Positions 5,604 through 55,952 of a stretch of 64,000 nt of DNA are shown in pieces. Source of the stretch: Thermoanaerobaculia bacterium (lineage in GTDB: Bacteria > Acidobacteriota > Thermoanaerobaculia > UBA5066 > Gp7-AA6). The position numbers and the translations under genes were made by a program. Location of the stretch: NCBI GenBank assembly GCA_035263845.1, contig DATFQY010000191.1, forward strand, positions 37-64,036. The letters run 5' to 3'. Numbering within the stretch: position 1 is the first letter of the stretch; each line of letters opens with the position of its first letter. Below the pieces are notes generated by a model, which saw only the letters and a list, made by a program, of their open reading frames with translations, was not told where the DNA came from and did no database searches.

Positions 5604-6887
5604 TTAGTTGAGGGAGGTTGCGAAATCGGGCGCCGTTAGCGGGAGTTTGGCGACGTTTCCCACGACGGCCATGGAGATGATCCGGCCGTCGAAGAGGCGC
5701 TCGGCCTCCTCGGCGATGTCGCCGGAGGTAACCGCCTCGACGCGGGTGATCATCTCTTCGGTCGAGGCGGGCTTGCCGAAGTAGAACTCGTGGCGGGCAT
5801 GCATGGACATGCGCGAGACGGTGGATTCCAGCGACAGCATCATGTTGCCCTTGAGGTTTTCCTTGGCCCAGGCCAGCTCCCTCGGCCGGACCCCCTCGCG
5901 CTTCAGCCTCTTGAGCTCCCGCAGCGTCACCTCCAGGAGCCGTCCCAGGTTCTTCGGCGCGCAGGCGGCGTAGATCGTCTCGTAGCCCCCCAGGCGGAAG
6001 GAGTTCAGCGAAGAGGCGATCGAGTACGCCAGCCCACGCTTCTCGCGAACCTCCTGGAAGAGCCGGGAGGACATCCCTCCGCCCAGGACGATGTCGAGCA
6101 GGTTCGCCGCGAACCGCCGGCCGGAAGCCTGCGACGGCCCCTCCACCCCGAGGCATATGTGGGCCTGCTCGAGCCCGCGCCGGGACTTGAGCAACAGGTC
6201 CTGGTGACCGCGGGGCCGCGCCAGCCGCCGGCCCGGTTCCCCGGAGCGTCCCGGGCGGGAGCGCCGGCGTGAGAAGAGGGCCTCGATCCGGGCGAGGCAT
6301 TCCCGGACGGGCACGTGCCCCGCGAGGGAGACGATCAGGTTCTCCGGCCGGTAGCTCGCCCCGTAGTAGCGGTAGAGGTCCGCCAGGCTGATGGAGCCGA
6401 CCGTCTCCGCCGTCCCGAGGATCGGGGCGCCCAGCGGGTGGCTGCGCCAGAAGGACCGGACGAAGAGCTCGTGGACCTCGTCATCCGGGTTGTCGCTGGC
6501 CTCCCGGATCTCGTCGAGGATGACACCCCGCTCCATCTCGATGTCCACGGACTCGAATGCGGGCGACAGGACCACGTCACCCAGGAGGTCGAGCGCCTCG
6601 GGGAACCGGGAATCCAGCGTGTGGACGTAGAACCCGGTGTACTCCTTGGTGGTGAAGGCGTCCACGTCCCCCCCGAGACGGTCAATCTCCCGGGCGATCT
6701 GGACGGTCGAGCGCCGGCGGGTCCGCTTGAAGAGGACGTGCTCCAGGAAGTGGGAGATCCCCTGCTTGGCTGTCGGCTCGTCTCCCGACCCGGCCCCCAC
6801 GAAGAAGCCGAGGGAGAAGGAGCGGACGTCCTGCATCCGGTCGATGAGAACCGTGGCTCCGTTGGGGAGGATGAACTTCTTGACCAT
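5604..6887 (-). CDS. M16 family zinc peptidase (insulinase-like)
   Basis: HFLEHVLFK inverted zincin HxxEH motif; 427 aa. Confidence 0.8.
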   Translation of the reverse strand: MVKKFILPNGATVLIDRMQDVRSFSLGFFVGAGSGDEPTAKQGISHFLEHVLFKRTRRRSTVQIAREIDRLGGDVDAFTTKEYTGFYVHTLDSRFPEALDLLGDVVLSPAFESVDIEMERGVILDEIREASDNPDDEVHELFVRSFWRSHPLGAPILGTAETVGSISLADLYRYYGASYRPENLIVSLAGHVPVRECLARIEALFSRRRSRPGRSGEPGRRLARPRGHQDLLLKSRRGLEQAHICLGVEGPSQASGRRFAANLLDIVLGGGMSSRLFQEVREKRGLAYSIASSLNSFRLGGYETIYAACAPKNLGRLLEVTLRELKRLKREGVRPRELAWAKENLKGNMMLSLESTVSRMSMHARHEFYFGKPASTEEMITRVEAVTSGDIAEEAERLFDGRIISMAVVGNVAKLPLTAPDFATSLN

Positions 6888-6980: not shown

Positions 6981-7613
6981 TTAGCGGCCGCGAACCGGAG
7001 TCACCTGGCCCGGGATCCCCGGGCCGCCGATGCCGCCGGGGCCTCTCATCCCGCCGCCGCCCGGCAGGCCCGTCATAGTGTCGCGGTCGGCGTCTCCCAT
7101 GATGAAGCGCCACTGGTCGTAGTACTTCTGACCGCGCCACTCCGACAGTGCCTCTTCGTGGAGGTTCGAGCGCACGCCGATGATCGGCCCGACGCTCTTG
7201 GTCTGACTCGCCCCGAAGACCCCGGGGGTCGGGCTGGGGAGCGGCGCCGGCTGCCCCGGCGATCCCGGCAGGCCCGAGCCTCCGACCGGAGCGTTCGGGT
7301 TGGCGTCGGGCGAGTTCTGGTAGATGACGTGCCAGTCCATGCAGTTGCAGAACGGCTCCTTGAAGAGGTGGCGGATCGTCCGCGGGCGGTTCTCGTAGAG
7401 CTCCTTCAGCTCCGTCGGGAAGCGGCCGTAGCGCTTCTGGAAGAGCGCGATCGCCCGGGCGTACTGCTTGCCGCGAAAGAGGAGCTCCTGCTCGCGCTCC
7501 CTCTTCATGATGGTGGCGATCGAAGGCGCCACACCCATCAGGAGGATCGCCATCACCGTCATCGCGATGACGATGGCGACCATCGTGTACCCGGATTCGC
7601 GGTTGTTTCTCAC
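6981..7613 (-). CDS. Pseudopilin-like protein (atypical; Gly-rich C-terminus)
   Basis: N-terminal hydrophobic helix GYTMVAIVIAMTVMAILL followed by a GspG-like region (YARAIALFQKRYGRFPTELKEL). It lacks the conserved Glu at +5. Confidence 0.5.
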   Translation of the reverse strand: MRNNRESGYTMVAIVIAMTVMAILLMGVAPSIATIMKREREQELLFRGKQYARAIALFQKRYGRFPTELKELYENRPRTIRHLFKEPFCNCMDWHVIYQNSPDANPNAPVGGSGLPGSPGQPAPLPSPTPGVFGASQTKSVGPIIGVRSNLHEEALSEWRGQKYYDQWRFIMGDADRDTMTGLPGGGGMRGPGGIGGPGIPGQVTPVRGR

Positions 7614-8026
7614 CAGTCTTTGTAGAGCGTGCCGTCCAATGCCTTGTCCGGGGAGCCGCTGTGGACGTCGATGACCCCCGGGTTGGTCGGAGCGTCGGCT
7701 GCGCCGGGCTGCTGGGAAGTGTCGGCGGTCGCTTCCTCGAGCGCGATGACCCAGGTCTCAGCGGACTTCGTCATCGGGTCCGTCGGGATCTTGCGCAGGT
7801 AGCCGGCCGACACGAGCGTCTGCAGGTCCGGCGGATAGGCGCCCTTGTCGCCGTGGTACTGGTCGATGACGCTTCGCATCGTGAAGAGGTCCTCCCGGAG
7901 GGCCGCCTCCCGCGCCCGCTGAGGAGAGTCCCGCAGGGCGGGGACGGCGATCGCCGCCAGGATCCCCACGATCGTCATGACGACGAGGAGCTCGAGAAGA
8001 GTGAACCCGCGTTCCGTTGACTTCAT
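7610..8026 (-). CDS. gspG: Type II secretion major pseudopilin GspG-like
   Basis: MKSTERGFTLLELLVVMTIVGILAAIAVP prepilin leader with GFTLLE, and IPTDP near the C-terminus. Confidence 0.7.
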   Translation of the reverse strand: MKSTERGFTLLELLVVMTIVGILAAIAVPALRDSPQRAREAALREDLFTMRSVIDQYHGDKGAYPPDLQTLVSAGYLRKIPTDPMTKSAETWVIALEEATADTSQQPGAADAPTNPGVIDVHSGSPDKALDGTLYKDW

Positions 8027-8030
8027 CTCC

Positions 8031-8570
8031 TCACCAGTCCTTGTAGTAGGTGCCGTCGATGGCCCGCAGGTCAGAGAGGGAGAAGACGTCGTAGACGTTC
8101 TGGCCACCCCAGGACAGCGTGTCCGGTTCGTCCTGGAAGGACCTCATTCCCCACTCGTCCTTCTTGGTCATGGGGTCGGTCGGAACCCGCCGGAGAAACT
8201 TCTGCTTCTTGTCGAGCTGGCCAACGAGCGTGACCCCCTCGACCAGGGTCTTCAAGTCGGGCGGGTAGCCTTCCGAGCCGATCTTGACGGGGATCAGGCC
8301 GAGGTCGGAGTACTGCTTGTACTTGTCGATGGCGTCCCGCATCAGGCGGAGCTGGTAGCGCAGCTCCAGTTCGTCCTGGCGTTTGACGGTGTACCGCGCG
8401 ATCGGGACCGCCATGGAGGCGAGGATCGCCACCATCGCCGCGACCACGGCGAGCTCGACGATCGTGAACCCGGATTCGTGAGCCGTGAACCGTGAGCCGT
8501 GAGCCGCGATTGCGGCGACACGCTCCCTCCACGGCTCACGGCTAACGGCTAACGGCTTACGGATCGTCAC
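8031..8570 (-). CDS. GspG-like pseudopilin, second paralog, with an unusually long N-terminal leader
   Basis: ESGFTIVELAVVAAMVAILA plus VPTDP. The only in-frame start is a GTG overlapping the secretin stop, so the first roughly 30 codons are encoded by the palindromic heptamer element. Confidence 0.6.
   Translation of the reverse strand: MTIRKPLAVSREPWRERVAAIAAHGSRFTAHESGFTIVELAVVAAMVAILASMAVPIARYTVKRQDELELRYQLRLMRDAIDKYKQYSDLGLIPVKIGSEGYPPDLKTLVEGVTLVGQLDKKQKFLRRVPTDPMTKKDEWGMRSFQDEPDTLSWGGQNVYDVFSLSDLRAIDGTYYKDW
8477..8566 (-). repeat. Palindromic heptamer-array element, copy 1 (CCGTAAG x4 / loop / CGGCTCA x4)
   Basis: Read directly: four tandem 7-mers on each arm, with the arms complementary. 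It is near-identical apart from the loop to the copy at 25018..25108. Confidence 0.6.
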
Positions 8571-10879
8571 TTCACCTCCACCGCGATCGGGGTCGAGCCG
8601 GCCCCGTCGGGGACCTTCTCGAAGGAAAGCGTGGAATTGCCCTTCGCGATTCCCCGCAACACGATTTCCGCGATCGCCCGGGTGCCCGAAACGTTCAAGA
8701 CGCTGGGGATGTCGATGATGACCCGGCCCGGGTCGATGTGGGAATCGGCGTAGCCGCCGTCGGAAAGGATCGGGCGCACCGAGACAGCGGCGGCCACCGC
8801 GGGGTCGAAGCGGACGGCGATCGAGGTGTTCTCGAGCGTCTTGTTGCCGCCGACCCGGACAATGACGGTCTTCTGCTCTCCCGGCGCCAGCACGAGCTGC
8901 GGCGGGTCGAAGTCGAAGGACACCGAGCCCGCGGGGGCGTCGGTCTGCGCCTGGATGGCGGCCTCCTGCGGCGCCGCCGCTCCGGCTCCCGGGGCGGCCG
9001 CCCCGCCCGGCGGGGGCGTGGGTCGAGGGGTGGGCCGGAAGATGTCGCTCGGCCCCCCGGCCGGGGCCAGGTTGATTCCGGCCGGCGGAGGCGGCGTCGT
9101 GGCCGGCCGCGCCGGGGCCACCGACGGCTGCCGGCCGAGGTCGAAGGGGCCTCCTCCGGCGGGCGACTCGATCCGCGGAGTGCCCTGGAACGAGATGTTG
9201 GCGTCGGTACCGACGTAGACCGGGGTCAGGTCCTCATCGGTGACGTCCGGGATCCGGATGATGTGCGGCGTCAGGGTCAGGACGAGGTCCGTCGTCGACT
9301 TGGTCGTCTTCTTCCTCGAAAGCAGCCTCCCCAGGATCGGGATGTCGCCGAGGAACGGGATCGTGACGTTCCCGTTGGCGATGTCCGTCCGCAACAGCCC
9401 GGCGAGGAAGTTCGTCTCGCCGTCCTTCAGGCGGATGTTGGACGAGATCGTCCGGGTGCCGATGATGGGCTGCTCCTGACCCTGCTGGACGGTGATCGAG
9501 CCGTTCAAGTTGGAGACCTCGACGGTCAGCTTCATCGTGATCTCGCGGTTGTGGTGGACGCGAGGCTCGACGTCGATCTTGATCCCGACGTCCTGGTACT
9601 GGAACGACGTGACCGGGACGATGTTGCCGCCGACGGTCGTGCCGGTGTTGAAGGTCGTCGTCGGGATCGGGACCTTGTCGCCGATGAGCAACTGCGCCTT
9701 CTGCCCCTCGGAGATCCGAAGCTGCGGCTTGGCGAGCAGCTCAGCGTCCGTGTTGTTCTTGATGAACGTGTAGGTCAGCGACGGGATCGTGAAGCCGAAG
9801 GAGCGGACCGAGATCTCCTTCAACTGGTCCCAGGTGAAGCTGCCGTCCGGGACGGGGTTGCCGAAGTTCGTGTTGCCGCCCGGGGGAGCCAGGGTCGCCC
9901 CGACGGAGTAGGAGGAGAGCAGCAGGCCGATGTCGATGTTCTTCGTTGCGTTGATCTGGAGCAGCTCGACGTCCACGATGACCTCGGAAAGCTGCTTGTC
10001 GTTCTGCTCGATGATCTTCTCGGCGATCGCGACCTTGTCGGCCGTGTCGCGCAGGGTGATGGAGTTCTCCGCCTTGTTGATCGAAATGCGGGTCGTCTGA
10101 AGCAGCGACCGCAGCGCGTTGGAGACCTCGGTGACGTCCCCGTTGGAGAGGAAGAAGGTCCGGATGACCAGGTCCTCGTAGGTCTTGCGGTTCTGCGGGT
10201 TATCGGCGGCGATCAGCATCGTGTGCTCGTCCACGACCTTGTAGAAGTGGTTCTCCTGCCGCATCAGGGTCTCCAGGGCGGTCTGGAACTCCACGTTGTT
10301 GAGCACGATCGAGACATTGTCGTCCTTCAGCTGCGGGTCGAAGATGACGTTGATGCCGGCGGCCGAGGCCAGCGACTGGTAGATCTGCTTGATCGGCTTG
10401 GGCGTCGGGAAGTTCAGGTTGATCGGCCGGTCGCTCGTGGGCTCGAGCATCGGGGCGCGGGCGCGGATGCCGCGGGTCCTGCGCTTGGCCGCCTCCATCC
10501 GGCTTTCCCCCGTCCGCTCGGCGATCGCCTTGGCGGCCTCGTCCCTCGCCTTGCGCAGCTCCGTCTCCGCGTACTTGTTGTTGTTGTCCAGGACGACCGC
10601 CTGCTCGAGCTCGACGACGGCCAGCTCCGGCTGGGCGGCGGCTCGGTACGTCTTCCCCTTCTCGAAGTGGAACTGAGACGCCTTGATTTTCGCCTTGGCG
10701 TAGGAAATCCGGTATTGCGAGTTGGCCGGGTCGAGCTCCACCGCCCGGCTGTACTTCATGACCGCGATGTCCCAATGCCCGAGCTGCTCTTCGTCCCGCG
10801 CCTCCTGGTAGGCGCGCGAGCCGGCGCAGCCGACGGCGAAGACAAGAGTCAGGAGTGCAAGAAGTCGCGATAGCTTCAT
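8567..10879 (-). CDS. gspD: Secretin (GspD/PilQ family) with N-terminal lipoprotein/TPR domain and C-terminal Pro-rich plus Ig-like extension
   Basis: Lipoprotein signal MKLSRLLALLTLVFAVGC; secretin C-domain (LKDGETNFLAGLL...GDIPILGRLLS); about 200-aa C-terminal extension. Confidence 0.8.
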   Translation of the reverse strand: MKLSRLLALLTLVFAVGCAGSRAYQEARDEEQLGHWDIAVMKYSRAVELDPANSQYRISYAKAKIKASQFHFEKGKTYRAAAQPELAVVELEQAVVLDNNNKYAETELRKARDEAAKAIAERTGESRMEAAKRRTRGIRARAPMLEPTSDRPINLNFPTPKPIKQIYQSLASAAGINVIFDPQLKDDNVSIVLNNVEFQTALETLMRQENHFYKVVDEHTMLIAADNPQNRKTYEDLVIRTFFLSNGDVTEVSNALRSLLQTTRISINKAENSITLRDTADKVAIAEKIIEQNDKQLSEVIVDVELLQINATKNIDIGLLLSSYSVGATLAPPGGNTNFGNPVPDGSFTWDQLKEISVRSFGFTIPSLTYTFIKNNTDAELLAKPQLRISEGQKAQLLIGDKVPIPTTTFNTGTTVGGNIVPVTSFQYQDVGIKIDVEPRVHHNREITMKLTVEVSNLNGSITVQQGQEQPIIGTRTISSNIRLKDGETNFLAGLLRTDIANGNVTIPFLGDIPILGRLLSRKKTTKSTTDLVLTLTPHIIRIPDVTDEDLTPVYVGTDANISFQGTPRIESPAGGGPFDLGRQPSVAPARPATTPPPPAGINLAPAGGPSDIFRPTPRPTPPPGGAAAPGAGAAAPQEAAIQAQTDAPAGSVSFDFDPPQLVLAPGEQKTVIVRVGGNKTLENTSIAVRFDPAVAAAVSVRPILSDGGYADSHIDPGRVIIDIPSVLNVSGTRAIAEIVLRGIAKGNSTLSFEKVPDGAGSTPIAVEVK

Positions 10880-10907
10880 GAGAAGTCTTCCCTTCGATCA
10901 ACAGGTC

Positions 10908-11561
10908 TCATGGTGTGATCCCCAGGCGTTTCGTCACGGACTGCGGATAGCCGACGTAGCCGATCTCGACGGACTCGTATCCGATGTTTCGGAGGATGAA
11001 ACGGTTGAAGACGACGTCCCCGGCGCGCGCGTTCAAGAGCTGGTCTCCCTGGAGCAGGACCGCGATCGGCGCCTCCCGGGGCCCGAACGTGCCGATGAAC
11101 TTGAAGCTGACCTCCGGCGGAACCGGGGTCGGCGTCGGGCCGGGCGGCGGGAGCGGCCCGATGAAGAGCGCGCTTCCGGGCGCGGGGGGCGGAGGCGGGG
11201 GCGGCGTCGGCGTGGGAGGCGGCGTCGGGGATGGCTGCCGCGGGTCGAAGATGTTGCGCCCGGTCTCCCCCGCTCGGGGCCGCGGAGGGTTGAGCATGTC
11301 CTTGCTCAGGAACGGCACGTCTTCCGGCGCGGTCTTCTTCTCGCGCGAGGCGCGGGCGCGCGGGCGGGCCACGGGTCGGTCGTCCTCCGCGCTGGCCGCG
11401 GGCGAGCCCGTGGCGGACGAGGCGGAGGCCGGGCCCGAGCGCGCGGTTGCGTCGCCTCCTCCCCGGTTGCCCCACTTCACGACGGCCAGGACCAGCACGA
11501 CGGCGAGGGCGCCGAGCAGGTAGAGCTGGCTTCGGGTCGAGCCGGAGGGGGCCCTCATTGC
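10908..11561 (-). CDS. GspC/PilP-like proline-rich periplasmic protein
   Basis: N-terminal TM segment, PPTPTPPPPPPP linker and a C-terminal beta-rich domain. Position after the GspM-like gene supports the call. Weak. Confidence 0.4.
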   Translation of the reverse strand, partial: AMRAPSGSTRSQLYLLGALAVVLVLAVVKWGNRGGGDATARSGPASASSATGSPAASAEDDRPVARPRARASREKKTAPEDVPFLSKDMLNPPRPRAGETGRNIFDPRQPSPTPPPTPTPPPPPPPAPGSALFIGPLPPPGPTPTPVPPEVSFKFIGTFGPREAPIAVLLQGDQLLNARAGDVVFNRFILRNIGYESVEIGYVGYPQSVTKRLGITP

Positions 11562-12163
11562 GGCGTGCTCCCGGCGAGCCTCGCGCGCGTCGAGGGCGCC
11601 TCGCCTTCCTCGGCGAGGAAGTAGGTCACCAGCGTCACGTGGACCTGAACCGAGCCCGGCATCTCCTGGTCCCGGGTCAGGCCGATCTCCCGGACGGCGA
11701 TCCACTTGCGGCTCGTCTGGAAGGCGTCGAGGAGCTGCTTGAACCGGCCGTATTCCCCGCGGAAGGAGAAGGCCACGTTCATCGGAACGAGCGAGCCGCT
11801 CTCCTGCTTGATCGCTGCGTACGAGATCTGCGCCGGGGAGACCCCTCCCTTGCGCAGGATCGTGTGGATCTCGTCCACGACGGCGGCCAGCGTCTCGCGC
11901 TGGGAGCCGATGCGGTGTCCGTAGAACTCGTCGAGCGCGGCGCGAACCTCCGAGAGGCGCTTGCGGTCGGAGGCGAGCTTCTTCGCCTCCGCCTCCTTCG
12001 ACTCGACCTCCTTCTCGAGCGCGACGCGCCGCCCCTCGAGGGCCTCGCGGCGCTCGCGGGCGGTGCCGCGATACCAGAAGAAGAACCCGGCGTTGGCGAC
12101 GAGCAGGACTCCCGCCGCGATCAGCCAGCCCAGCCGCCTCGCCCAGACGCCGCCGCCCGTCAC
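11555..12163 (-). CDS. GspM/PilO-like inner-membrane component
   Basis: Single N-terminal TM, a coiled-coil and a periplasmic domain, plus operon position. Confidence 0.45.
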   Translation of the reverse strand: MTGGGVWARRLGWLIAAGVLLVANAGFFFWYRGTARERREALEGRRVALEKEVESKEAEAKKLASDRKRLSEVRAALDEFYGHRIGSQRETLAAVVDEIHTILRKGGVSPAQISYAAIKQESGSLVPMNVAFSFRGEYGRFKQLLDAFQTSRKWIAVREIGLTRDQEMPGSVQVHVTLVTYFLAEEGEAPSTRARLAGSTPQ

Positions 12164-12738
12164 GACTTCGCTCCGGGACGGTACTGGACCGTCACCTCGA
12201 AGGTGTGCCCCTCGGGCACGCCCTTCTCGGGATTGGACTCCGTGTGGAGGGCCAGGGACTCGAAGGACGGGTCCTTCGAGAACGCGGCGATCGTCTTGAC
12301 GACGCTCTCGGAGTCCTTGCCCAGCAACCCGATGCTCAACGTCGTCTCGCCCGTATCCTCGAAGTGCGGCGCCAGGCGGACCACACGCACGTCGGGCGGG
12401 AGCGTCTTCTCGAGCCTCGTCAGCAGGCCGGTCCAGGAGAAGCGGCGCTCCCCGACGATCCGGAGCAAGCCACGGCTCTCCTGGGCCAGCGCGGAGACCT
12501 TGTAGTTGTTCAGCGCCGTCCGGGACTCGTCGGCCCCCCTCATCGCCTTCGCACGCCGCTGCTCGAGAAACTCGATCTGGCGCCCGGTGCCCTCGCTGTC
12601 GCGCTGAAAATCGCGGTACAGCGAGACGTTCTGGGCCAGGAAGACGAGCGCGACCGCGAAGGCGAGCCCCGCGATCAGGAAGACGGGACGCTCGTCGCGG
12701 AAGGGGCGGCGCGCGAAATCGAGCCGGCGGAGCCTCAT
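12160..12738 (-). CDS. PilN / GspL C-terminal-domain-like protein
   Basis: Bitopic membrane protein sitting between the PilM-like and PilO-like genes. Confidence 0.45.
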   Translation of the reverse strand: MRLRRLDFARRPFRDERPVFLIAGLAFAVALVFLAQNVSLYRDFQRDSEGTGRQIEFLEQRRAKAMRGADESRTALNNYKVSALAQESRGLLRIVGERRFSWTGLLTRLEKTLPPDVRVVRLAPHFEDTGETTLSIGLLGKDSESVVKTIAAFSKDPSFESLALHTESNPEKGVPEGHTFEVTVQYRPGAKS

Positions 12739-13642
12739 CGCCCGTACACCGCCGCGAACCCGGGCAGCAGCTCGGGCCGCGAAACGATCCGCTCGTCGAA
12801 CGTGGGATCAGTCGAGAAGAGCCGGCCCTGGATCCTCTGGGGGGGCACCGGGAGCCTCTCGGCGTGCCACGACTCCGCGGGCGACTGGTCGTGGACGTAG
12901 ATCGCCGCGAGGCCCTGCCCGTTCAACTTCTCGGCGTAATAGGAGAGCGACAGCCGCAGCTCCTGCTCGTGCCCCTCTTCCTCCTCGGAAGGACGCTGCC
13001 GGAAGAGAAGCAGCGTCTCGCCGCGCGCGATGATGAAGACGATCGACCCGGAGGAGCGGTGGATCAGCGCATAGTCTCCGGGGCTCTTCGCCGAGAGCGT
13101 CGGCGCCAGCCCCTCGAAGAGGACGAGGCTCGCCGGCGCCAGCGCGCCGACCCGCACCCCCTTCTCCTCGAACGCCGCCTCGATCGAGCGGAGCATCTCG
13201 GCCGGCGCGGCCGCGACGAGCAGGCGCTTCTGCTCGCCCGCGGGGGCCATTTCGACGTGGACGATCTCCAGCTCGGTGGTCACGCCCGGAAGGAGCTTCT
13301 TCAACTTCCACAGCACCATCTCGCGGATCGACTCGTCGGAGCTGGGGATCGAGTCGAGCTCGACGGGAAGGATCCGCGCCCAGGAATCCGGGAAGACGAC
13401 GGAGGCGCGGGTCAGCCGGCCCTGGGAGAACCGGCGCGCGGCCTCGACCGCGGGCGCCAGGGCGGCGGCCGAGAAGAGCGGCGTCCCGGAGGCGCCGGTC
13501 CCGACCGTGTTGGGCGGATAGGGGAAGTTCTGCGAGAAGGAGATCCCGGCCGGCGACTTGCGGTTGACGAAGGCGTAGGTCACTCCGTCCGCCATCAGGC
13601 AGAAGACGTGCGGGGGCACGACCGGTTTCAGAAAGGGCAGCG

Positions 13643-13646
<4 letters not shown>
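12735..13646 (-). CDS. PilM / GspL cytoplasmic-domain-like (actin-like) protein
   Basis: About 303 aa, ATGA-coupled to gspE. Architecture fits a split GspL. Confidence 0.55.
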
Positions 13647-15256
<1,610 letters not shown>

Positions 15257-15266
15257 GGTCCTCCTC

Positions 15267-16481
15267 CTATCCCTTGATCTGCGACATGAGACGGAAGATC
15301 GGCAGATACACCGAGAGGAGGATCGTCATGATGACCCCTCCCATGATCACGAGGATCGCCGGCTCGACGAAGGAGATCACCCGCGCCAGCAGAAGGTCGA
15401 TTTCCTCGTCGTAGAACTCCGACACGGAGGAGAGCATCTCCTCCAGGGCGCCCGAGGCCTCGCCGACCTTGATCATCTCGATTGTCAGGTTCGTGAAGAT
15501 GCCCGTTCCCTCGAGGGCCCTCCACAGCTCGCCTCCCTCTCGGATCTTCGGGACGATCTCGCCGATCTGGCGCGAGACGAAGCGGTTGCCGACCGCCGCG
15601 GACGCGTTCTCCAGCGCCGGGACGAGCGGCGTGCCCCCTCCCAGGAGCGTCGCCAGGCTGCGCGTGAACTGAGAGATCGCGAAGCGGCGGAAGATGCCGC
15701 CGAGGACGGGGAGCTTCAGGATGAACGAGTCGCCCCACTCGGCGCCCCGCGAGGACTTCAGCCACCGCGTCGCGAAGAAGCCCCCGACGATCAGGACCAC
15801 GAGGAGGAGGAAGATGTTGCGCCGCAGGAACGTCGCGGAACCGATGACGATGACCGTCAGCAGCGGCAGCTCCGCCTTGAAGTCTCCGAAGAACTCCTGG
15901 AACTTCGGGATCACGACGGTCATCAGGATCGCGATCAGCCCGATCGAGAGCGCGATCAGGATGGCCGGGTAGACGAGCGTCGAGATGACCTTGCGGGTCA
16001 GCGCCATGATCGTGCGCTGGTACTTGACGTACCGGCGCAGCACGCTCTCGATCTCGCCGGACTTCTCGCCGGCTTTCAACGACGTCCAGTACAGCCGCGG
16101 AAAGAGGTCTCCCTGCTGCTCGAAGGCGTCGGAGATCGCGGCTCCGGCGTTGACCCTCTCCCGGACGTCCGCGAGGACGCGGCGCAGGACCGGGCTCTCT
16201 TGCCGCTCCAGCAGCAGCTCGAAGGAGTGGAGGACCGGCAGCCCGGCCTTCAGCAGCGCGATCAGCTCCTGGTTGAAGATCAGGAAGTCGCGCATCTTGA
16301 CGTGCCCGCGGCGGCGCCGACGGCCGCCCACCAGCGACAGGCCCTCGCGGCGGATCTCGAAGACATGCCCGCCGCGGCGCTCCATCTCCAGGCGCGCCGC
16401 CGTGGCGTCGGCCGCCTGGATCGCCTCCTCGGCCACCCTCCCGTCGGGCCATCCGACCTTGGCTCGGAACTCGCGGCTCAT
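15267..16481 (-). CDS. gspF: Type II secretion platform protein GspF
   Basis: 404 aa with duplicated GspF/PilC domains. Confidence 0.85.
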   Translation of the reverse strand: MSREFRAKVGWPDGRVAEEAIQAADATAARLEMERRGGHVFEIRREGLSLVGGRRRRRGHVKMRDFLIFNQELIALLKAGLPVLHSFELLLERQESPVLRRVLADVRERVNAGAAISDAFEQQGDLFPRLYWTSLKAGEKSGEIESVLRRYVKYQRTIMALTRKVISTLVYPAILIALSIGLIAILMTVVIPKFQEFFGDFKAELPLLTVIVIGSATFLRRNIFLLLVVLIVGGFFATRWLKSSRGAEWGDSFILKLPVLGGIFRRFAISQFTRSLATLLGGGTPLVPALENASAAVGNRFVSRQIGEIVPKIREGGELWRALEGTGIFTNLTIEMIKVGEASGALEEMLSSVSEFYDEEIDLLLARVISFVEPAILVIMGGVIMTILLSVYLPIFRLMSQIKG

Positions 16482-16484
16482 CGC

Positions 16485-17234
16485 CTAGCGCTTCTCCACC
16501 GACTTGCCCCCCGGCGCTCCGGGGCGGGCCGTCTCCTGCGCGAGCAGGATCAGGATCAGGGCGTTCTTGGAGCCTTCCTCCTTGGACGCCCCGACGACCA
16601 GCGTCTGGTTGAGCGTCACCGGCACGGAGGCGCGGTACAGGAGCGTGGGCTGCACGCGGCCCTGCTCGTCCTTCTTCAGCCTGGACAGAGCGAACGGCGA
16701 GAGCAGCAGCTCGTCGCCCGCCCCGGCCGGGCCGATGGTGAAGGTCAGGATGTACTCGTCGCCGAGCCGGTAGGAGACCGGCCGTCCCTCGACTCCCTGC
16801 ATCGTGGCGGAATCCAGGAGCGTGTAGTCGTTGAACTGGAACATGGATTTCAGCTTCGCCCCCAGACCGCCGATCTCGCGCGCCATGGACCCGGCGGGCG
16901 CGTCGGCGCGGGCACGCACGAGCTTGACCGCGAAGGTGAAGCCGCGCGGGGGAACGTCGAACTCGGAGAGGACCTTCGCGATCGTCTTCAAGTTCTCCTC
17001 CCGATCCGTGACGGTCATCGCATTCAGGCGCTGCGCCAGCGTGATCGAGGCCGAGTCGGAGAGGTGGGGACGGATCAGCAGGGCCGCCTCTTCGACCCGC
17101 TTGTACTTCAGCACGAAGACCCGGACCGCCGTCTCCGAGGCCGCCCCCGCCGGGGACGCGTTCTCCGGTCCCGGCAGCGCGATCGCGTCGAGCGACATGG
17201 CCACGAGGGCCGCGAAGAGAATTCCTTTTCTCAC
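16485..17234 (-). CDS. Periplasmic protein with a Secretin_N-like domain
   Basis: Signal peptide, then VRVFVLKYKRVEEAALLIRP...TVTDREENLKTIAKVLSEFD, which resembles the secretin N domain. No secretin C-domain. Confidence 0.5.
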   Translation of the reverse strand: MRKGILFAALVAMSLDAIALPGPENASPAGAASETAVRVFVLKYKRVEEAALLIRPHLSDSASITLAQRLNAMTVTDREENLKTIAKVLSEFDVPPRGFTFAVKLVRARADAPAGSMAREIGGLGAKLKSMFQFNDYTLLDSATMQGVEGRPVSYRLGDEYILTFTIGPAGAGDELLLSPFALSRLKKDEQGRVQPTLLYRASVPVTLNQTLVVGASKEEGSKNALILILLAQETARPGAPGGKSVEKR

Positions 17235-17276
17235 CGAATGAAGAACCCCGCCCGGGAACCGAGATGCCCGGAACGC

Positions 17277-17822
17277 TTAGATGTCGATCGAACGATCCAC
17301 GATCCAGACCACGCGCGGCTGTCCCGCGCCGGGGTTGAAGTCGTAGATCGTCGCGTCCGCCGGAAACTTCTGGGTCCCGCTCGTGACGCCGGGCGCCTGC
17401 GGCGGCGCGATCGCCGCCGGAGCGAAGCCCGTGTCCGCCGACTGGCGGGGCCCCGCCACCGCCGCCGGCGCATCCCGCCGAGGCGGCGCTCCCGGCGCCA
17501 GAAGCGTCAGGAGAAGGGCCGCCGCGGCCGCGCCCAGGATGCTCCACCGCCGCCGGCGCGAAGGAGCCTCGACCCGCCGCTCCGCCTGCTTCCAGGCGAT
17601 GCCCGACCGGACGCCCTCGAGGATCCGCGAGATCTCGGCGGGCGGGACCGGCGGCTCGGCCGCTCCCGCGAAGAGAAACAGCGGATCCGCCGCGGCCGCC
17701 ACCCGGCGGCACTCCTCGCACGAGGCGAGGTGCTCGCGAACGGCCCTTCGCTGCTCTCGGGTCAGCGCTTCCGCGGAGTAGTCGTCGAAACGGCCGCGGA
17801 TCTGGCCGCAAGAGGGCGTCAT
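17277..17822 (-). CDS. Anti-sigma factor (zf-HC2 type), single TM
   Basis: CGQIR...HLASCEECR zinc finger with a TM helix. ATGA-coupled to the sigma gene. Confidence 0.6.
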   Translation of the reverse strand: MTPSCGQIRGRFDDYSAEALTREQRRAVREHLASCEECRRVAAAADPLFLFAGAAEPPVPPAEISRILEGVRSGIAWKQAERRVEAPSRRRRWSILGAAAAALLLTLLAPGAPPRRDAPAAVAGPRQSADTGFAPAAIAPPQAPGVTSGTQKFPADATIYDFNPGAGQPRVVWIVDRSIDI

Positions 17823-18514
17823 GGCTCGACCTTGTCCCGCTGGTCCCGCCGCCGCGAGAGCCCCGGCGAGATCCGCTCGATCTCTCGGCGAAGCGCGCGT
17901 CGTGCGTTGAAGAGGTGGTTGCGGACGGTGGACTCGCCGCAATTCAGGATCTCCGCGATCTCGCTGGTTTCCAGGTCCTCGAGCTCGCGCAGCACGAAGG
18001 CTGCCTTCTGCTTGCCCGTCAGCCTGCCCGCGACCTTCTGGAAGAGCCGCGAGGCGGAATCATCCTCGGCCGCCCGCGTCGTCTCGTTGCCGGTCTCGCT
18101 CTCGCGCATCCGGACGAGGTGAAGCGTGGCGGTATGGGCCTTCTCGCGGCTCCGGGCGGACCGAAGAAAGTCGATCGCGAGGTTGGTCGCGATCCGGTAG
18201 AGCCAGGTGTTGAAGGAGTATGTCTCGTCGTAGCGGGACAGCTGCTCCCAGACCCGCAGGAAGGACAGCTGCGCGACGTCCCTCGCGTCCTCGAGGTTTC
18301 CCACGATGCGGCGGGCGACCGCGACGACGGAGGGGGTCTTGCGCACCACCAGCGCCTCGAAGGCGACCATGTCGCCGCCCCGCGCCTGGATGGCCAGCTC
18401 GCGGTCCGGCAGCTGGCCGACTTCCTCCCGCCGCCGGTTCTCGCTGTAGATGAGCTCCATCGGCGTTTTATACGGAGACGGATCGCCCGGCGTTGGAGGC
18501 TTTTTCTCCGACAT
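17819..18514 (-). CDS. ECF-type RNA polymerase sigma-70 family factor
   Basis: Region 2 (LSFLRVWEQLSRYDETYSFNTWLYRIATNLAIDFLR) and region 4 (EIAEILNCGESTVRNHLFNARRALR). Confidence 0.75.
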   Translation of the reverse strand: MSEKKPPTPGDPSPYKTPMELIYSENRRREEVGQLPDRELAIQARGGDMVAFEALVVRKTPSVVAVARRIVGNLEDARDVAQLSFLRVWEQLSRYDETYSFNTWLYRIATNLAIDFLRSARSREKAHTATLHLVRMRESETGNETTRAAEDDSASRLFQKVAGRLTGKQKAAFVLRELEDLETSEIAEILNCGESTVRNHLFNARRALRREIERISPGLSRRRDQRDKVEP

Positions 18515-18649
18515 AAGCCATTGAATGGTAGGGCCTTGGGGCGGCCGGGGCAAGTCGAAGGTCCGAGGGAGGGGTAGGAGTGGCCAACCTGGACCTGAAA
18601 CAGTCCGCTCGCGGCCCTCGATTCCTGTGGTCGGGGATAATCGACGCGG

Positions 18650-19966
18650 ATGTTTCTCTACCGAATCCTGTCGGTCCTGGCGCTGCTGGCCTACTCCCCG
18701 GTCGCCCTTTTCCGGTCGATGACCGGGCGGAAGAAAATGGGGGACGTCCGGGGCAAGCTGGGGCTGCTCCCCTACCCCGATCTGGACGGCGGAATCTGGG
18801 TCCACGCAGTCTCGGTCGGCGAGGTCGGGGTGGCGCGCAACCTGTTGACCGCGCTCTCGAAGCGGGCGCCGGCGGGCACGCGGCTCGGGCTGTCCGCGAC
18901 GACTGTCGCCGGCCTGGAAACGGCCCGCCGCACGTCGGTGGATCGCTGGCCGGTCTTCTCGTTCCCGCTCGACCTCGCGGGTCCGGTCGAGAAGGCCCTG
19001 GCGGCCGTCCGGCCGGGCCTCGTCGTCCTGACGGAGACGGAACTCTGGCCGCTCCTGATCGACCGGGCTGTCCGGCGAGGAGCCGGCGTCGCCCTGGTCA
19101 ACGGGAGGATTTCGGACCGGTCGCTGCGCCGTTACCGGCTCGTGCGGCGGTGGTTCGCACGGAGCCTGGAGCGGATTTCCCTCTTCGCGATGCAAAGCGA
19201 GGAGGACTCGAGGCGCATCCGGGAGCTTGGGGCGCCGGCGGACCGCGTCCTCGTAACCGGCAACGTCAAGTACGACCTCGCGCCGGCTCCCCCCTTCGCG
19301 GACGCCGCCCGGCTTTCGTCTCTCGCGGCCGGCCGGCCGGTCCTCGTCGCGGCTTCGACCGGGCCGGGCGAAGAAGCGATCGTGCTGGACGCCTGGAAGG
19401 GTTTGGAGTCGCGCACCGTGCTCGCGATCGCCCCGCGCCGCCCCGAGCGGTTCGAAGAGGTCGCCCGGCTGGTCGAATCGAAAGGCTTCGCGGTGATCCG
19501 CCGCTCGGACCCCGGCGCGCTCTCAAATCACAAATCACAAATCCCAAATCACAAATCTTCGGTCTACGTTCTCGATACGGTCGGAGAGCTCGCTTCGCTG
19601 TACGGCGAGGCGGCGATCGCCTTCATCGGGGGGAGCCTGATCCCCACCGGCGGCCACAATCCGATCGAGGCCTGGGCGCAAGGAGTCGCCGTCCTCGTCG
19701 GCCCGCACACTCAGAGTTTTCGCGAGATCACCGAGGCGGGCGAGAAGCAGGGAGTCCTCCACCGAGTGGCCGGGGGCGAGGAGCTCGCGAGGGCGTTCGA
19801 GGCCGCCGCCGCCGACCCCGAGGCCGCCGCCGCGCGAGGCGCCGCCGCTCGCGCGTTCGTCGCGAAGAGCCGGGGAGCGGCCGAGGCGACCGCGGAGGCC
19901 ATCGTCAAGCTCCTGCCCGCCGAGCCGGTTCCCGCCAAAGAGAAGTCGCGAGCTGCGCTCCCGTGA
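18650..19966 (+). CDS. waaA: 3-deoxy-D-manno-octulosonic acid transferase
   Basis: KdtA-like over its full length (VSVGEV..., LDTVGEL...GGSL...GGHNP). Carries an in-frame heptamer-repeat segment. Confidence 0.85.
   Translation: MFLYRILSVLALLAYSPVALFRSMTGRKKMGDVRGKLGLLPYPDLDGGIWVHAVSVGEVGVARNLLTALSKRAPAGTRLGLSATTVAGLETARRTSVDRWPVFSFPLDLAGPVEKALAAVRPGLVVLTETELWPLLIDRAVRRGAGVALVNGRISDRSLRRYRLVRRWFARSLERISLFAMQSEEDSRRIRELGAPADRVLVTGNVKYDLAPAPPFADAARLSSLAAGRPVLVAASTGPGEEAIVLDAWKGLESRTVLAIAPRRPERFEEVARLVESKGFAVIRRSDPGALSNHKSQIPNHKSSVYVLDTVGELASLYGEAAIAFIGGSLIPTGGHNPIEAWAQGVAVLVGPHTQSFREITEAGEKQGVLHRVAGGEELARAFEAAAADPEAAAARGAAARAFVAKSRGAAEATAEAIVKLLPAEPVPAKEKSRAALP
19524..19560 (-). repeat. GAAGA-(TTTGTGA)4 element, in-frame inside kdtA in reverse orientation
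   Basis: aaatcacaaatcacaaatcccaaatcacaaatcttc encodes SNHKSQIPNHKS. Confidence 0.6.
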
Positions 19967-24555: not shown

Positions 24556-25034
24556 CGGGAGGCCTCTCGAAGATCCTCTCCCGCGAGGAGCTTCTCGAAG
24601 CGGCGAAGCGCCAGGGCGCCGCGGGCCGCTCGATCGTGTTCGCCAACGGCGCGTTCGACCTGCTCCACGTGGGCCACGTCCGCTACCTCGAGGCGGCGCG
24701 CCGCGAGGGGGACTGGCTCGTGGTCGGCGTCAACTCCGACCGGTCGGTCCGCGCGTCCAAGGGGGACGGCCGCCCGATCCTGCCGGAGTCCGAGCGGTCG
24801 GAGGTCGTCGCTGCCCTCCGGTGCGTGGACGCCGTCGTGATCTTCGACGAGGACTCTCCGGCGGAGCTGATCGCGGCGCTGCGCCCGGCGGTCCACGCCA
24901 AGGGCACCGACTACACTTCCGAGTCGGTTCCCGAGCGCTCGGTCGTCGCCTCTTACGGGGGCCGAACTGTGATCGTCGGGGACCCGAAGGACCACGCCAC
25001 GACCGACCTGATCGAACGGATCCGTAAGCCGTAA
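24552..25034 (+). CDS. hldC: D-glycero-beta-D-manno-heptose-1-phosphate adenylyltransferase (HldE domain II / HldC)
   Basis: Cytidylyltransferase HxGH motif (GAFDLLHVGHVRYL). ATGA overlap with the kinase gene. Confidence 0.8.
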   Translation: MTGGLSKILSREELLEAAKRQGAAGRSIVFANGAFDLLHVGHVRYLEAARREGDWLVVGVNSDRSVRASKGDGRPILPESERSEVVAALRCVDAVVIFDEDSPAELIAALRPAVHAKGTDYTSESVPERSVVASYGGRTVIVGDPKDHATTDLIERIRKP

Positions 25035-25108
25035 GCCGTCAGCCGTCAGCCGAAGCCATGCTTGATACTGGGACTCCGGCTCACCGCTCACGGCTCACGG
25101 CTCACGCG
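25018..25108 (+). repeat. Palindromic heptamer-array element, copy 2
   Basis: ccgtaagccgtaagccgtcagccgtcagccg / 25-nt loop / cggctcaccgctcacggctcacggctcacg. It contains the hldC stop and ends 2 nt before the waaC-like ATG. Confidence 0.6.
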
Positions 25109-26807: not shown

Positions 26808-26885
26808 GCAGTTTGTGATTTGTGATTTGTGATTTGTGAACAGGGCGGAAAGGCCGACTTCTTGCCCTGATCAGAAATCACCAAT
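26808..26885 (+). repeat. (TTTGTGA)4-ACAGGGCGGAAAGGCCGA hairpin module, right after a stop codon
   Basis: Read directly. The heptamer run places TGA in all three frames. The downstream GAAATCACCAATCCCTCAC is partly complementary to it. Confidence 0.6.
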
Positions 26886-26915: not shown

Positions 26916-28760
<1,845 letters not shown>

Positions 28761-28762
28761 GC

Positions 28763-28836
28763 GGTGGGTGTTAGGTCCTAGGTGGTAGGAAAGCCCCGCT
28801 TCCGGGCCTACCACCTACCACTTGCCACCTAACACC
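28763..28836 (+). repeat. Heptamer-array palindrome (GGTGGGT GTTAGGT CCTAGGT GGTAGGA / loop / CCTACCA CCTACCA CTTGCCA CCTAACA)
   Basis: Read directly. Lies between the pilB stop and the pilT start. Confidence 0.5.
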
Positions 28837-28907
28837 TTGCGGGTAAACCGGTAGGCTTTCCTTTCGGCCGGCGAGCGGCTAAACTAACGCACTTCCCTAA
28901 GGGACCG

Positions 28908-30029
28908 ATGCCCAGCGATACGACACTCCACCAGCTCCTCAAGCAGATGGTCGAAATGGGGGCCTCCGACCTCCACCTGACGACCAACTCGCCACCGATG
29001 GTCCGGCTGGACGGGCGGCTCATTCCGCTTCCGTACCCGCCTCTGACGGTGTCGGAAACCAAACACCTCGCGTACTCGGTTTTGACAGACAGCCAGAAGC
29101 ACCGCTTCGAGGAGACGCTGGAGCTGGACTTCTCCTTCGGCGTCAAGGGGCTCGCCCGGTTCCGCGCCAACAATTTCAACCAGCGCGGAGCGGTCGCCGG
29201 CGTCTACAGGCAGATCCCCTATCAGATCCTCGGCTTCCGCGAGCTGGGGCTGCCGCCGATCGTCGAGACCCTCTGCGACAAGCCGCGAGGCCTGATCCTC
29301 GTCACGGGCCCCACCGGCTCGGGCAAGACGACGTCGCTCGCCGCGATGCTCGACAAGGTCAACGTCGAGAAGCAGCTCCACATCGTCACCATCGAGGACC
29401 CCATCGAGTTCCTCCACGGGCACAAGAAGTGCCTCGTCAACCAGCGCGAGCTCCACGCCGACACGCACTCCTTCCCCAACGCGCTGCGGGCCTGCCTGCG
29501 CGAGGACCCCGACGTCGTCCTCATCGGCGAGATGCGCGACCTGGAAACCATCGAGTCGGCCCTGCGCATCGCCGAGACCGGCCACCTCACGCTCGCGACC
29601 CTGCACACCAACTCCGCGATCTCCTCGATCAACCGGATCATCGACGTGTTCCCCGCGCACCAGCAGACGCAGATCCGCACACAGCTCTCCTTCGTGCTCG
29701 AGGGGATCCTCTGCCAGTCCCTCCTCGAGAGGGCGAGCGGCAAGGGCCGCATCATGGCGATGGAAGTCCTGGTCCCCAACGCCGCCATCCGCAACCTGAT
29801 CCGCGAGGACAAGGTCCACCAGATCTACTCGATGATGCAGACGGGCCAGTCGAAGTTCGGGATGCAGACTTTCAACCAGTCGCTGGCGACGCTCTACCAC
29901 CGCAAGCTGATCACGCTGGAGACGGCGCTGTCTCGCTCCTCCAATCCCGACGAGCTGCAGGAGCTGATCGGGCGCGGGGCAGGGCTGAACGTCGCCGCGC
30001 CGCCGGCCGTGGCCGGCAGGCGCGTTTAA
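28908..30029 (+). CDS. pilT: Twitching motility ATPase PilT
   Basis: 373 aa, GPTGSGKTTSLAAM, PilT-specific C-terminus. Confidence 0.88.
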   Translation: MPSDTTLHQLLKQMVEMGASDLHLTTNSPPMVRLDGRLIPLPYPPLTVSETKHLAYSVLTDSQKHRFEETLELDFSFGVKGLARFRANNFNQRGAVAGVYRQIPYQILGFRELGLPPIVETLCDKPRGLILVTGPTGSGKTTSLAAMLDKVNVEKQLHIVTIEDPIEFLHGHKKCLVNQRELHADTHSFPNALRACLREDPDVVLIGEMRDLETIESALRIAETGHLTLATLHTNSAISSINRIIDVFPAHQQTQIRTQLSFVLEGILCQSLLERASGKGRIMAMEVLVPNAAIRNLIREDKVHQIYSMMQTGQSKFGMQTFNQSLATLYHRKLITLETALSRSSNPDELQELIGRGAGLNVAAPPAVAGRRV

Positions 30030-30041
30030 GGAAGTCCCGCC

Positions 30042-31244: not shown

Positions 31245-31250
31245 GGGTCT

Positions 31251-34845: not shown

Positions 34846-34912
34846 AGAATCTGTGATTTGTGATTTTGTGATTTGTGAACAGGGCGGAAAGCCGATAGCG
34901 CGGCTGCCCTCA
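34846..34912 (+). repeat. GAAGAATC-(TGTGATTTGTGATTTTGTGATTTGTGA)-ACAGGGCGGAAAGCCGA hairpin module
   Basis: Read directly. Begins right after the DUF192 stop codon. Confidence 0.6.
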
Positions 34913-45707: not shown

Positions 45708-45818
45708 GGGTCCAATGGACCTTGGACGAACCTTTGACCTTGGACTTGGGACTTTCGACACACTGGACCTTGGACTTTGGACGTGCGACCGACCTTGGAC
45801 CTTGGACCTTGGACCGTC
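45708..45818 (-). repeat. Degenerate (GGTCCAA)n / (CTTGGAC)n heptamer array, about 14 units
   Basis: Read directly. Lies between the tandem TGATGA stops of the permease and the lolA-like start. Confidence 0.55.
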
Positions 45819-55942: not shown

Positions 55943-55952
55943 GAAAGAGTTC

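Follow-up and report, generated by a model that had tools for sequence, protein, structure and literature searches.

In a 64,000-nucleotide (nt) stretch of DNA from a Thermoanaerobaculia bacterium (contig DATFQY010000191.1, positions 37 to 64,036; here called the window and numbered from its first letter) we find a compact operon that combines the genes of a type IV filament (TFF) superfamily machine with those of a sigma factor of the extracytoplasmic function (ECF) type and of its anti-sigma factor. With moderate confidence we interpret this locus as a lineage-specific member of the superfamily, a type II secretion-like machine placed under the control of its own ECF switch. The identities of the genes, the PilM fold of one of the products, the linkage of the set across the class and a promoter motif that is unique to the sigma gene are established here; protein secretion would be the output of the machine, and an envelope signal its inducing cue. 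The operon is best filed as a class-wide variant within the branch of the superfamily that holds type II secretion systems (T2SS) and type IVa pili (T4aP), with a built-in ECF switch. In our literature searches we met no account of the operon; its gene count and sigma start, the assignment of PilM, the dual promoter with its unique ECF-type site, the anti-sigma motif and the secretin architecture are new here.

Thermoanaerobaculia, Acidobacteria that are widespread in soil, are nearly all uncultured, and to our knowledge their envelope machines have been known only from automatic annotation. The operon represents a conserved, compact intermediate between the T2SS and T4aP layouts with a minimal set of pseudopilins, and it bears on the origin of the T2SS from pilus machines and on which of the parts are truly required. 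The sigma factor, the anti-sigma factor with its conserved sensor motif and the defined promoter make up a clean, predictable regulatory module. Should the sigma factor drive the machine, these bacteria would have a capacity for secretion that is induced and signal-dependent rather than housekeeping.

The operon is a tight co-directional block of 13 genes on the minus strand, extending from ~18514 to 6981 and delimited by open reading frame (ORF) listing and codon-position G+C in a window of ~68% G+C overall. The same block had been outlined in a first-pass annotation made from the sequence alone. That annotation spoke of fifteen genes, while its own list names the 13 that we count after correcting four start codons (17822, 13646, 11558 and 8026). 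Its description of the junctions as mostly 4-nt overlaps holds for 7 of the 12; the others are gaps of 3, 4, 10, 28 and 42 nt, the last being the largest. Of the component identities that it proposed, Pfam and NCBIfam matches bear out an ECF sigma factor, a zf-HC2 protein, a Secretin_N-only protein, T2SSF and T2SSE proteins, a secretin and three N_methyl pseudopilins.

The assembly ATPase matches T2SSE at 5.8e-130 and the inner-membrane platform matches T2SSF at 6e-52. Against the models that separate secretion from pilus proteins, the ATPase scores 541 bits for GspE (cutoff 630) and 533 bits for PilB, both under cutoff, and the platform 319 bits for GspF (TIGR02120, cutoff 424) and 269 bits for PilC. 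The ATPase has the tetracysteine motif and, unlike a PilB encoded elsewhere in the window, is without the cyclic di-GMP-related (c-di-GMP) MshEN motif; it was also found as an exact match in soil metagenome contigs. It reaches only 58 bits against the TadA-family model, and the platform is a single two-domain T2SSF protein, such that the operon has neither the TadA-type ATPase nor the split TadB/TadC platform of a Tad (type IVc) system.

The proteins that we call M, N, O and P make up an inner-membrane scaffold which keeps the T4aP arrangement, with PilM and PilN separate. As a single sequence M has no Pfam match. An exhaustive representative search recovered relatives in 594 clusters at E≤1e-3, and a profile of 70 M sequences matches the PilM structures 2ych (3.8e-17), 3jc8 (4e-15) and 5eox (2e-8); 12 of the 70 relatives match PilM_2 (PF11104). 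The AlphaFold2 (AF2) model of M, which has a pLDDT of 94, finds PilM as its best Foldseek match (~1e-15), followed by FtsA, with the cytoplasmic domain of GspL at ~1e-8. M has no transmembrane (TM) segment and is followed by a separate PilN-like gene, and is thus not organized as a fused GspL. On the basis of profile and predicted fold, M is a stand-alone PilM and not a GspL. N, O and P each have one N-terminal TM helix. Two orthologues of N from the more distant set of loci described below (clade 2) score 24.6 bits (cutoff 22.8) and 21.9 bits against Pfam PilN, for which N of the window has no match. O gives threshold scores in both directions, with 21.2 bits for PilO (cutoff 22) and 24 bits for GspM_XpsM, and an O orthologue reaches 22.0 bits for T2SSM_b (cutoff 21.7). 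The C-terminal block of P (~70 residues) is conserved in 32 orthologues and matched no family in Pfam scans or in a profile comparison with the PDB, nor is a GspC HR/PDZ domain recognisable. Its position and topology only suggest a PilP/GspC-like role.

The secretin matches Secretin (9.5e-39), Secretin_N (3.5e-9) and STN (24.5 bits) in Pfam, with weak TPR matches in addition. It scores higher for GspD (151 bits, cutoff 351) than for PilQ (110 bits), both under cutoff, and its best PDB match is XcpQ. The signal peptide ends in a lipobox Cys, after which comes the TPR region. The strict lipobox pattern is present in 31 of 53 clade-1 orthologue N-termini and in 11 of 22 clade-2 secretins, and the WD.AV start of the TPR region comes after the Cys wherever it is seen. 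TPR lipoproteins such as PilF, PilW and Tgl are classical secretin pilotins. By analogy with these, and with the liposecretin HxcQ (Viarre et al. 2009, as cited in PMC12475490), a plausible role of the TPR-lipoprotein N-terminus fused to the secretin is to stand in for a separate pilotin. Only STN/N0 and one Secretin_N domain stand ahead of the pore domain. A Pro-rich linker then leads to a C-terminal domain of ~120 residues (window 8570-8974, residues ~636-770) with weak cohesin matches (PDB 3l8q at 1e-3; Pfam Cohesin in 3 of 25 orthologues), which we tentatively describe as cohesin-like; such a module on a secretin would be unusual.

The operon contributes a further secretin-related protein, SecN, which matches Secretin_N at 1.8e-8 and has a beta-rich C-terminal half. 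The SecN family profile matches only the N-domains of PilQ and GspD, and the named members among its 443 homologues are from Thermoanaerobaculia or Acidobacteriota metagenome-assembled genomes (MAGs). The AF2 model, built from a shallow alignment of 30 sequences, is poor (pLDDT 49) and we claim no fold from it. SecN may supply a further ring in the periplasm, one that is missing from the short secretin.

Only three prepilin-type N-termini are present in the 64 kb, all from the operon. Two of these pseudopilins, pp1 and pp2, are paralogous to each other; each has Glu5, no cysteine and the GspG-like C-terminus ...DGT[LY]YKDW. The longer C-terminal motif DxxSxxxxxxxDGTxYKDW is common to the two, and pp1 ends in DGTYYKDW. 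Against the GspG model (TIGR01710, cutoff 88.85) pp2 scores 56 bits in an alignment of nearly full length, alongside an N_methyl match at 3.5e-9, and pp1 scores 28 bits over residues 33-155. GTG 8570 is the sole in-frame start of pp1 and gives it a prepilin leader of 32 aa. As a separate observation, a palindrome of heptamer repeats, its 34-nt arms 85% complementary, is translated within this leader. The third subunit, pp3, matches N_methyl at 1.4e-4 and otherwise gives only a weak HpsB match. Position 5 is Ala, Val or Gly, not Glu, in its listed orthologues, and pp3 is a candidate minor or initiator subunit. In agreement with the first-pass annotation, the 64-kb window contains no prepilin peptidase-like multi-TM ORF.

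The earlier description of the locus as a T2SS/type IV pilus hybrid is thus upheld: PilM, recognised by profile and fold, and a separate PilN occur together with GspG-like pseudopilins and a GspD/XcpQ-like secretin. We view the machine as a T2SS-like device because it has GspG-type subunits, a GspD-like pore and no retraction ATPase, a PilT-family protein not being found among the operon genes. The operon resembles a canonical T2SS (Gsp/Eps/Xcp) in its GspE-family ATPase with tetracysteine motif, its GspF platform and GspD-like secretin, its cysteine-free GspG-like pseudopilins, its single compact layout and the missing retraction ATPase. It differs in that its matches are all under the curated cutoffs, that PilM and PilN are separate rather than fused as GspL, that one extra pseudopilin only is present and no recognisable GspH/I/J/K set, that no GspC HR/PDZ domain can be recognised, that the secretin combines N0 and one N-domain with a TPR-lipoprotein N-terminus and a cohesin-like C-terminus, and that a Secretin_N-only protein is added. 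With the PilMNOPQ systems of T4aP (Thermus, Myxococcus, Pseudomonas) it shares the order M-N-O-P-Q, a cytoplasmic PilM fold that stands alone and a PilN whose N-terminus has a short conserved peptide. It departs from them in a PilM that the Pfam model misses and that is shorter by ~50 residues than its solved counterparts, a P protein that is TM-anchored and has no lipobox, a secretin nearer to GspD than to PilQ, GspG-like pilins, the lack of PilT and of a PilA-type major pilin, and the gathering of everything in one locus.

Machines of mixed composition have precedents. Denise, Abby and Rocha (2019) described hundreds of 'generic' or chimeric TFF systems (PMC6668835), and the atypical T2SS of Chlamydia and Bacteroidetes, which are without GspL/M or minor pilins or have mixed profiles, fall outside the specific MacSyFinder models (PMC6668835). 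Like the 'generic' systems, the operon has an ATPase, platform, pilin and secretin, with some components missing or profiles mixed. Acidobacteria are not mentioned in their text, which also reports that no system type has other proteins associated with it systematically (PMC6668835).

Viewed as a T2SS-like device, the operon would work as follows. The GspE-type ATPase and GspF platform would polymerise a short pseudopilus made of the two GspG-like subunits and the one subunit without Glu5. This would take place beneath the outer-membrane secretin, predicted to be a lipoprotein that has a TPR module fused to it. The T4aP-style set of PilM, PilN, the PilO/GspM-like protein and the PilP/GspC-like protein would link the ATPase and platform to the secretin, with SecN as an extra periplasmic secretin-N-domain protein.

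A group of T4aP genes lies 8.4 kb from the operon, at 26916-34381, and the first-pass annotation had taken it for a complete T4aP block. It does encode pilB, pilT (28908-30029), pilC, a histidine kinase and a sigma-54 response regulator; a pilin, pilMNOPQ and a prepilin peptidase (pilD) to go with them were not found in the window. The PilB of this group passes the TIGR02538 PilB model with 754 bits and has the MshE-type c-di-GMP-binding motif (NF053729, 65.6 bits, cutoff 38). As had been claimed, the operon encodes a machine separate from that of pilB-pilT-pilC, identity to the window PilB and PilC being only 37% for its ATPase and 33% for its platform.

The operon is conserved class-wide in Thermoanaerobaculia. 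We collected related loci in two ways, scanning GTDB species representatives with the PilM-like alignment (clade 1: 68 loci, all Thermoanaerobaculia or Acidobacteriota MAGs) and scanning metagenomes with a distant PilM-like subfamily that is ~25% identical to the window protein (clade 2: 80 loci). One member of the clade-2 subfamily is named as Thermoanaerobaculia. M of the window itself has an identical NCBI entry, from a Thermoanaerobaculia MAG on a 128-kb contig. When the window proteins were compared with the ORFs of the clade-1 loci by BLASTP, the order from sigma to pp3 was kept in every locus long enough to show it; complete loci with this order number 47 from genomes and 15 from metagenomes. 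Across both clades, all 74 loci having at least 2.6 kb upstream of gspF carry the sigma gene there, same strand and no more than 2.5 kb away. The 20 long clade-2 loci that take in the region upstream of gspF have sigma, SecN, F, E, M, N, O, P, Q and pp1-pp3, preceded in 18 of the 20 by the Kdo transferase gene kdtA; similarity revealed the anti-sigma factor in only 9 of these loci, and a conserved anti-sigma-type C-terminus stands ahead of SecN in 17 of 17 loci examined. In three distant loci (L070-L072) the proteins are 27-34% (PilM), 46-47% (sigma) and ~72% (ATPase) identical to those of the window. No kdtA was detected upstream in these loci, yet the sigma pair remains joined to the secretion genes, and in L070 the anti-sigma gene stops no more than a few bases from where SecN starts. 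Only close orthologues came back from a profile search aimed at distant relatives.

The sigma factor consists of regions 2 and 4 only (Sigma70_r2 at 4.5e-18 and Sigma70_r4_2 at 4.2e-14 in Pfam) and passes the sigma70-ECF model TIGR02937 with 99.8 bits (cutoff 42.9). The ORF begins at ATG 18514, and the true start is probably ATG 18460 instead, because the -10 element of the promoter P2 (CGTATAA, within 18458-18474) ends 7 nt ahead of the latter, the protein from 18460 opens MELIYS, homologous to the clade-2 start MLELVYS, and the position of ATG 18514 reads AGG in many related loci. Sigma gene calls in homologous loci are 208-213 aa, and in clade 2 the -10 element is only ~10-22 nt ahead of the start codon. 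The position of the P2 -10 element next to 18460 implies that sigma transcripts made from P2 would have little or no leader and no Shine-Dalgarno sequence.

The anti-sigma start overlaps the sigma stop by 4 nt. The protein matches zf-HC2 (PF13490; 1e-6, 29.1 bits, cutoff 22.2) and NF052375 (1.9e-13), has the HxxxCxxC motif in the form H-LAS-C-EE-C, and has one TM segment at residues 93-113 in a hydropathy scan. The two genes thus have the features of an ECF sigma/class I anti-sigma pair, being adjacent and translationally coupled, with zf-HC2 and a TM helix in the anti-sigma factor. Overall the anti-sigma factor is weakly conserved (~37-58% identity in most loci). Its best-kept part is the last 25 residues, ATIYDFNPGAGQPRVVWIVDRSIDI-COOH, which are ≥90% conserved. 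We considered that this might reflect a hidden DNA element or promoter and rejected the idea: third positions vary in these 25 codons, and therefore the constraint acts on the protein. Orthologues of one distant group close with a degenerate form of the motif, VRVYQY...GAVFIVNPAMEL, and those of the other with the related ARVYHMDGEGLSVVMIVDESLDV. This C-terminal periplasmic motif is likely to be a sensor or interaction element.

Aligned upstream regions of 57 sigma genes contain two conserved blocks, P1 and P2, with P2 ~30-55 nt downstream of P1. P1 (CTTGCC-N17-TA(C/A)(C/G)AT) is identified by consensus match only and was not listed by a promoter scan of the window; clade 2 carries GCAGTATAAT at the equivalent place. 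P2 has the form expected of an autoregulatory ECF promoter, AAC-N16-17-CGT ahead of the sigma factor's own gene, and may be recognised by this sigma factor. In the aligned loci both ends of P2 are fixed and the spacer is freely variable, and clade 2 has [AG]AC-N17-CGTA in this place. In the 64-kb window P2 is the sole match, with a chance expectation of 0.03. Over 2.54 Mb (window plus loci) CAAC-N15-YCCGTA has 51 matches, once per locus and always ahead of the sigma gene, compared with 2-6 in shuffled sequence. A relaxed form of the motif occurs ahead of sigma in 56 of 56 loci, ahead of SecN in 1 of 60 and ahead of most other genes in 0-12%. An ECF-like motif ahead of the secretin gene in 15 loci (25%) was rejected as a promoter, since it falls in a coding stretch for the conserved residues D-T-L-F-G-K-F-V within one sub-clade. 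The first-pass view that the sigma pair belongs to the operon is therefore well founded, the sigma gene being linked in 74 of 74 loci, including those without detected kdtA, and the ECF promoter occurring only ahead of sigma.

We propose that P1 gives basal transcription and that inactivation of the anti-sigma factor, its cue probably received through the conserved C-terminal motif in the periplasm, would free the sigma factor to fire P2 ahead of its own start codon. Firing of P2 would amplify sigma and, by read-through, the eleven structural genes. This scheme of basal P1 and feedback P2 fits the locus because the genes are tightly packed and there is no second ECF-type site. The specificity of the sigma factor for P2, and the co-transcription of the structural genes from the sigma factor's own promoter, are both presumed in it. 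No terminator-like site is listed between the anti-sigma and SecN genes in the window scan, and the 42-nt gap there folds no better than shuffled sequences (z = +1.4). A hairpin in this gap was also considered as a conserved attenuator and rejected, given this result and the finding that the equivalent elements elsewhere are variable, REP-like heptamer elements without U-tracts.

An ECF sigma factor next to T2SS genes has a precedent. In P. aeruginosa the sigma factor VreI, which is paired with VreR, up-regulates the adjoining Hxc T2SS (PMC2729926). In this PUMA3 system (VreA-VreI-VreR), as in our operon, a sigma/anti-sigma pair lies directly upstream of T2SS-type genes and the secretin is a lipoprotein, by prediction in our case. 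The operon differs in its small zf-HC2 anti-sigma factor with a ~70-aa periplasmic tail in place of a FecR-type protein, in having no VreA-like receptor, in the composition of the machine and in phylum; furthermore, the sigma pair here appears to lie within the transcription unit of the structural genes. In the main text of the ECF reclassification the only mention of a 'secretion system' is the link between ECF32 and the type III secretion system, secretins go unmentioned and no T2SS-linked group is named (PMC7826278).

Several observations weigh against our interpretation of the locus as an ECF-switched, T2SS-like machine. No structural protein of the operon attains a curated equivalog cutoff for the GspD, GspE, GspF or GspG models. 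The closest solved relative of the ATPase is PilB of Geobacter (424 bits), ahead of GspE of Vibrio (355 bits). The operon has no fused GspL and no recognisable GspC, and no match to GspH/I/J/K, whose absence the first-pass annotation had already pointed out, extends past the shared N-terminal helix, those to GspH and GspI being below cutoff. No substrate gene is evident in the locus. As regards the switch, a REP-like hairpin divides the anti-sigma gene from SecN in several related loci and could attenuate read-through, and a conserved neighbourhood is by itself weak evidence for a functional link, because kdtA and a gene for an M16 peptidase are also conserved neighbours in most loci.

Some of these points could also mean that the machine does not secrete folded proteins but assembles a filament on the cell surface, for adhesion or another pilus function, or passes a polymer, for example slime or exopolysaccharide, out through the TPR-secretin. 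The PilM/PilN/PilO layout is T4aP-like, the best solved relatives of the ATPase are PilB proteins, pp3 weakly matches the hormogonium polysaccharide-secretion pseudopilin HpsB, and no protein substrate is encoded nearby. In addition, synthase-dependent polysaccharide export typically has a TPR module beside the outer-membrane exporter, and T2SS-type secretins have been linked to the secretion of slime (PMC12475490). We nevertheless regard this alternative as unlikely. The subunits pp1 and pp2 are GspG-like over their full length and are without a disulfide-bonded D-region, the secretin scores GspD above PilQ, and no glycosyltransferase or polymerase was found among the operon genes, just as there is no retraction ATPase; the TPR region is also what would be expected of a pilotin.

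A more speculative idea, which we consider improbable, is that the machine and the sigma switch form one signalling device, with the anti-sigma tail docking on the secretin N0/STN domain or on SecN and the state of the machine controlling anti-sigma proteolysis. The hairpin ...VYDxNPG...VVWIVDxSLDI-COOH would dock by beta-strand addition to STN/N0 or to a ring-building domain, and the assembly state or substrate load would set anti-sigma proteolysis and hence synthesis of the machine; the cohesin-like domain of the secretin would be a possible extra docking site. Such a device would be the equivalent, carried by a T2SS, of TonB-dependent cell-surface signalling, in which the periplasmic C-terminus of the anti-sigma factor binds STN and is protected from proteolysis (FecA/FecR/FecI, FoxA/FoxR/FoxI; PMC11637429). 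The STN fold is common to secretin N0 domains (PMC11637429), and the operon encodes STN/N0 and Secretin_N domains beside the anti-sigma factor. This precedent of an STN-binding anti-sigma factor motivates the idea but does not support it, and is a possible working analogy only. The tail here is a motif of ~25 residues and not a FecR-type beta-solenoid plus STN, and no TonB-dependent transducer-like gene was found in the operon.

It is similarly improbable, in our judgement, that the sigma pair is a general envelope-stress regulator and that the secretion genes run mainly from the sigma-70-like promoter or an internal one, independently of it. An envelope regulon would fit the conserved divergent neighbours kdtA and lpxK, which serve lipopolysaccharide (LPS) biogenesis and are present in most loci, and the search for further sites covered ~20 kb per locus and one 64-kb window. 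Yet in loci with no kdtA detected upstream the sigma pair still accompanies the secretion genes, and the 2.5 Mb of related sequence contains no second ECF-type site. The anti-sigma stop and SecN start overlap or are ≤~25 nt apart in several loci, which therefore have no room for a promoter there. The hairpins between anti-sigma and SecN in some loci, which might seem to separate the two units, are REP-like, locus-variable and without a U-tract, and the corresponding gap of the window has no significant structure.

Table 1. Promoters, genes and repeat element of the operon, with positions in the window
Feature	Position	Strand	Characteristics
P1, sigma-70-like promoter	18525..18553	-	TTGCCC 18553-18548, 17-nt spacer, TACCAT 18530-18525
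P2, ECF-type promoter	18471..18495	-	CAAC 18495-18492, 17 nt, CGTA 18474-18471
ECF sigma factor, 213 aa from probable start ATG 18460	17819..18460 (long ORF from 18514)	-	Sigma70_r2 + Sigma70_r4_2, TIGR02937
Anti-sigma factor, 181 aa	17277..17822	-	zf-HC2, one TM segment, periplasmic tail
SecN, signal-peptide protein, 249 aa	16485..17234	-	one secretin N-domain-like module, Secretin_N
GspF/PilC-family inner-membrane platform, 404 aa	15267..16481	-	T2SSF
GspE/PilB-family assembly ATPase, 537 aa	13643..15256	-	T2SSE + T2SSE_N/MshEN-type N-domain
PilM-like cytoplasmic actin-fold protein (M), 303 aa	12735..13646	-	profile + AF2 fold
PilN-like bitopic protein (N), 192 aa	12160..12738	-	N-terminal LDFARRPF motif, TM 15-41
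PilO/GspM-like bitopic protein (O), 202 aa	11555..12163	-	PilO / GspM threshold scores
P protein	10908..11558	-	TM 8-32, proline-rich linker, conserved C-terminal domain of ~70 aa
Secretin, 770 aa	8567..10879	-	lipobox Cys, TPR, STN/N0, Secretin_N, secretin, tentative cohesin-like domain
Imperfect palindrome of heptamer repeats	8473..8565	.	between secretin stop and pp1 cleavage motif
pp1, GspG-like pseudopilin	8031..8570	-	Glu5, unusually long leader, N_methyl match
pp2, GspG-like pseudopilin, 138 aa	7610..8026	-	leader MKSTERG, Glu5, N_methyl
pp3, pseudopilin, 210 aa	6981..7613	-	without Glu5 (GYTMVA), Gly/Pro-rich tail, N_methyl

Both flanks of the operon have conserved neighbours. On the sigma side, kdtA (18650-19966, plus strand) is divergent from the sigma gene, an arrangement kept in both major clades and not seen in L070-L072; lpxK is also present in L003 and L004. 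This divergence raises the question of whether expression of the LPS core and of the secretion machine share an intergenic control region. On the other side, a gene for an M16 zinc peptidase (5604-6887, minus strand) begins 93 nt downstream of pp3. The protein has an HFLEH motif and no signal peptide. The gene follows pp3 in clade 1 (~31% identity in L070 and L071) and was not detected there in clade 2. We considered the peptidase as a component of the machine and set this aside in view of its missing signal peptide and of clade 2; it is probably a conserved neighbour and not a component.

Finally, heptanucleotide tandem arrays, of period 7 and with 4-5 copies of differing units, are scattered through the window. 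In addition to those at 8473-8565 and 25019-25106, they lie at 19524-19557, 26812-26839, 28807-28840, 34852-34878, 45730-45816, 55951-55980 and 56821-56841, and one falls inside the kdtA ORF. The heptamer pairs at 8473-8565 and 25019-25106 form imperfect palindromes with arms of ~34 nt. Similar heptamer elements occur in the gap between anti-sigma and SecN in L006-L010 and L069 and upstream of sigma in L070-L072. These elements look like repetitive extragenic palindromic (REP)-type mobile hairpins.

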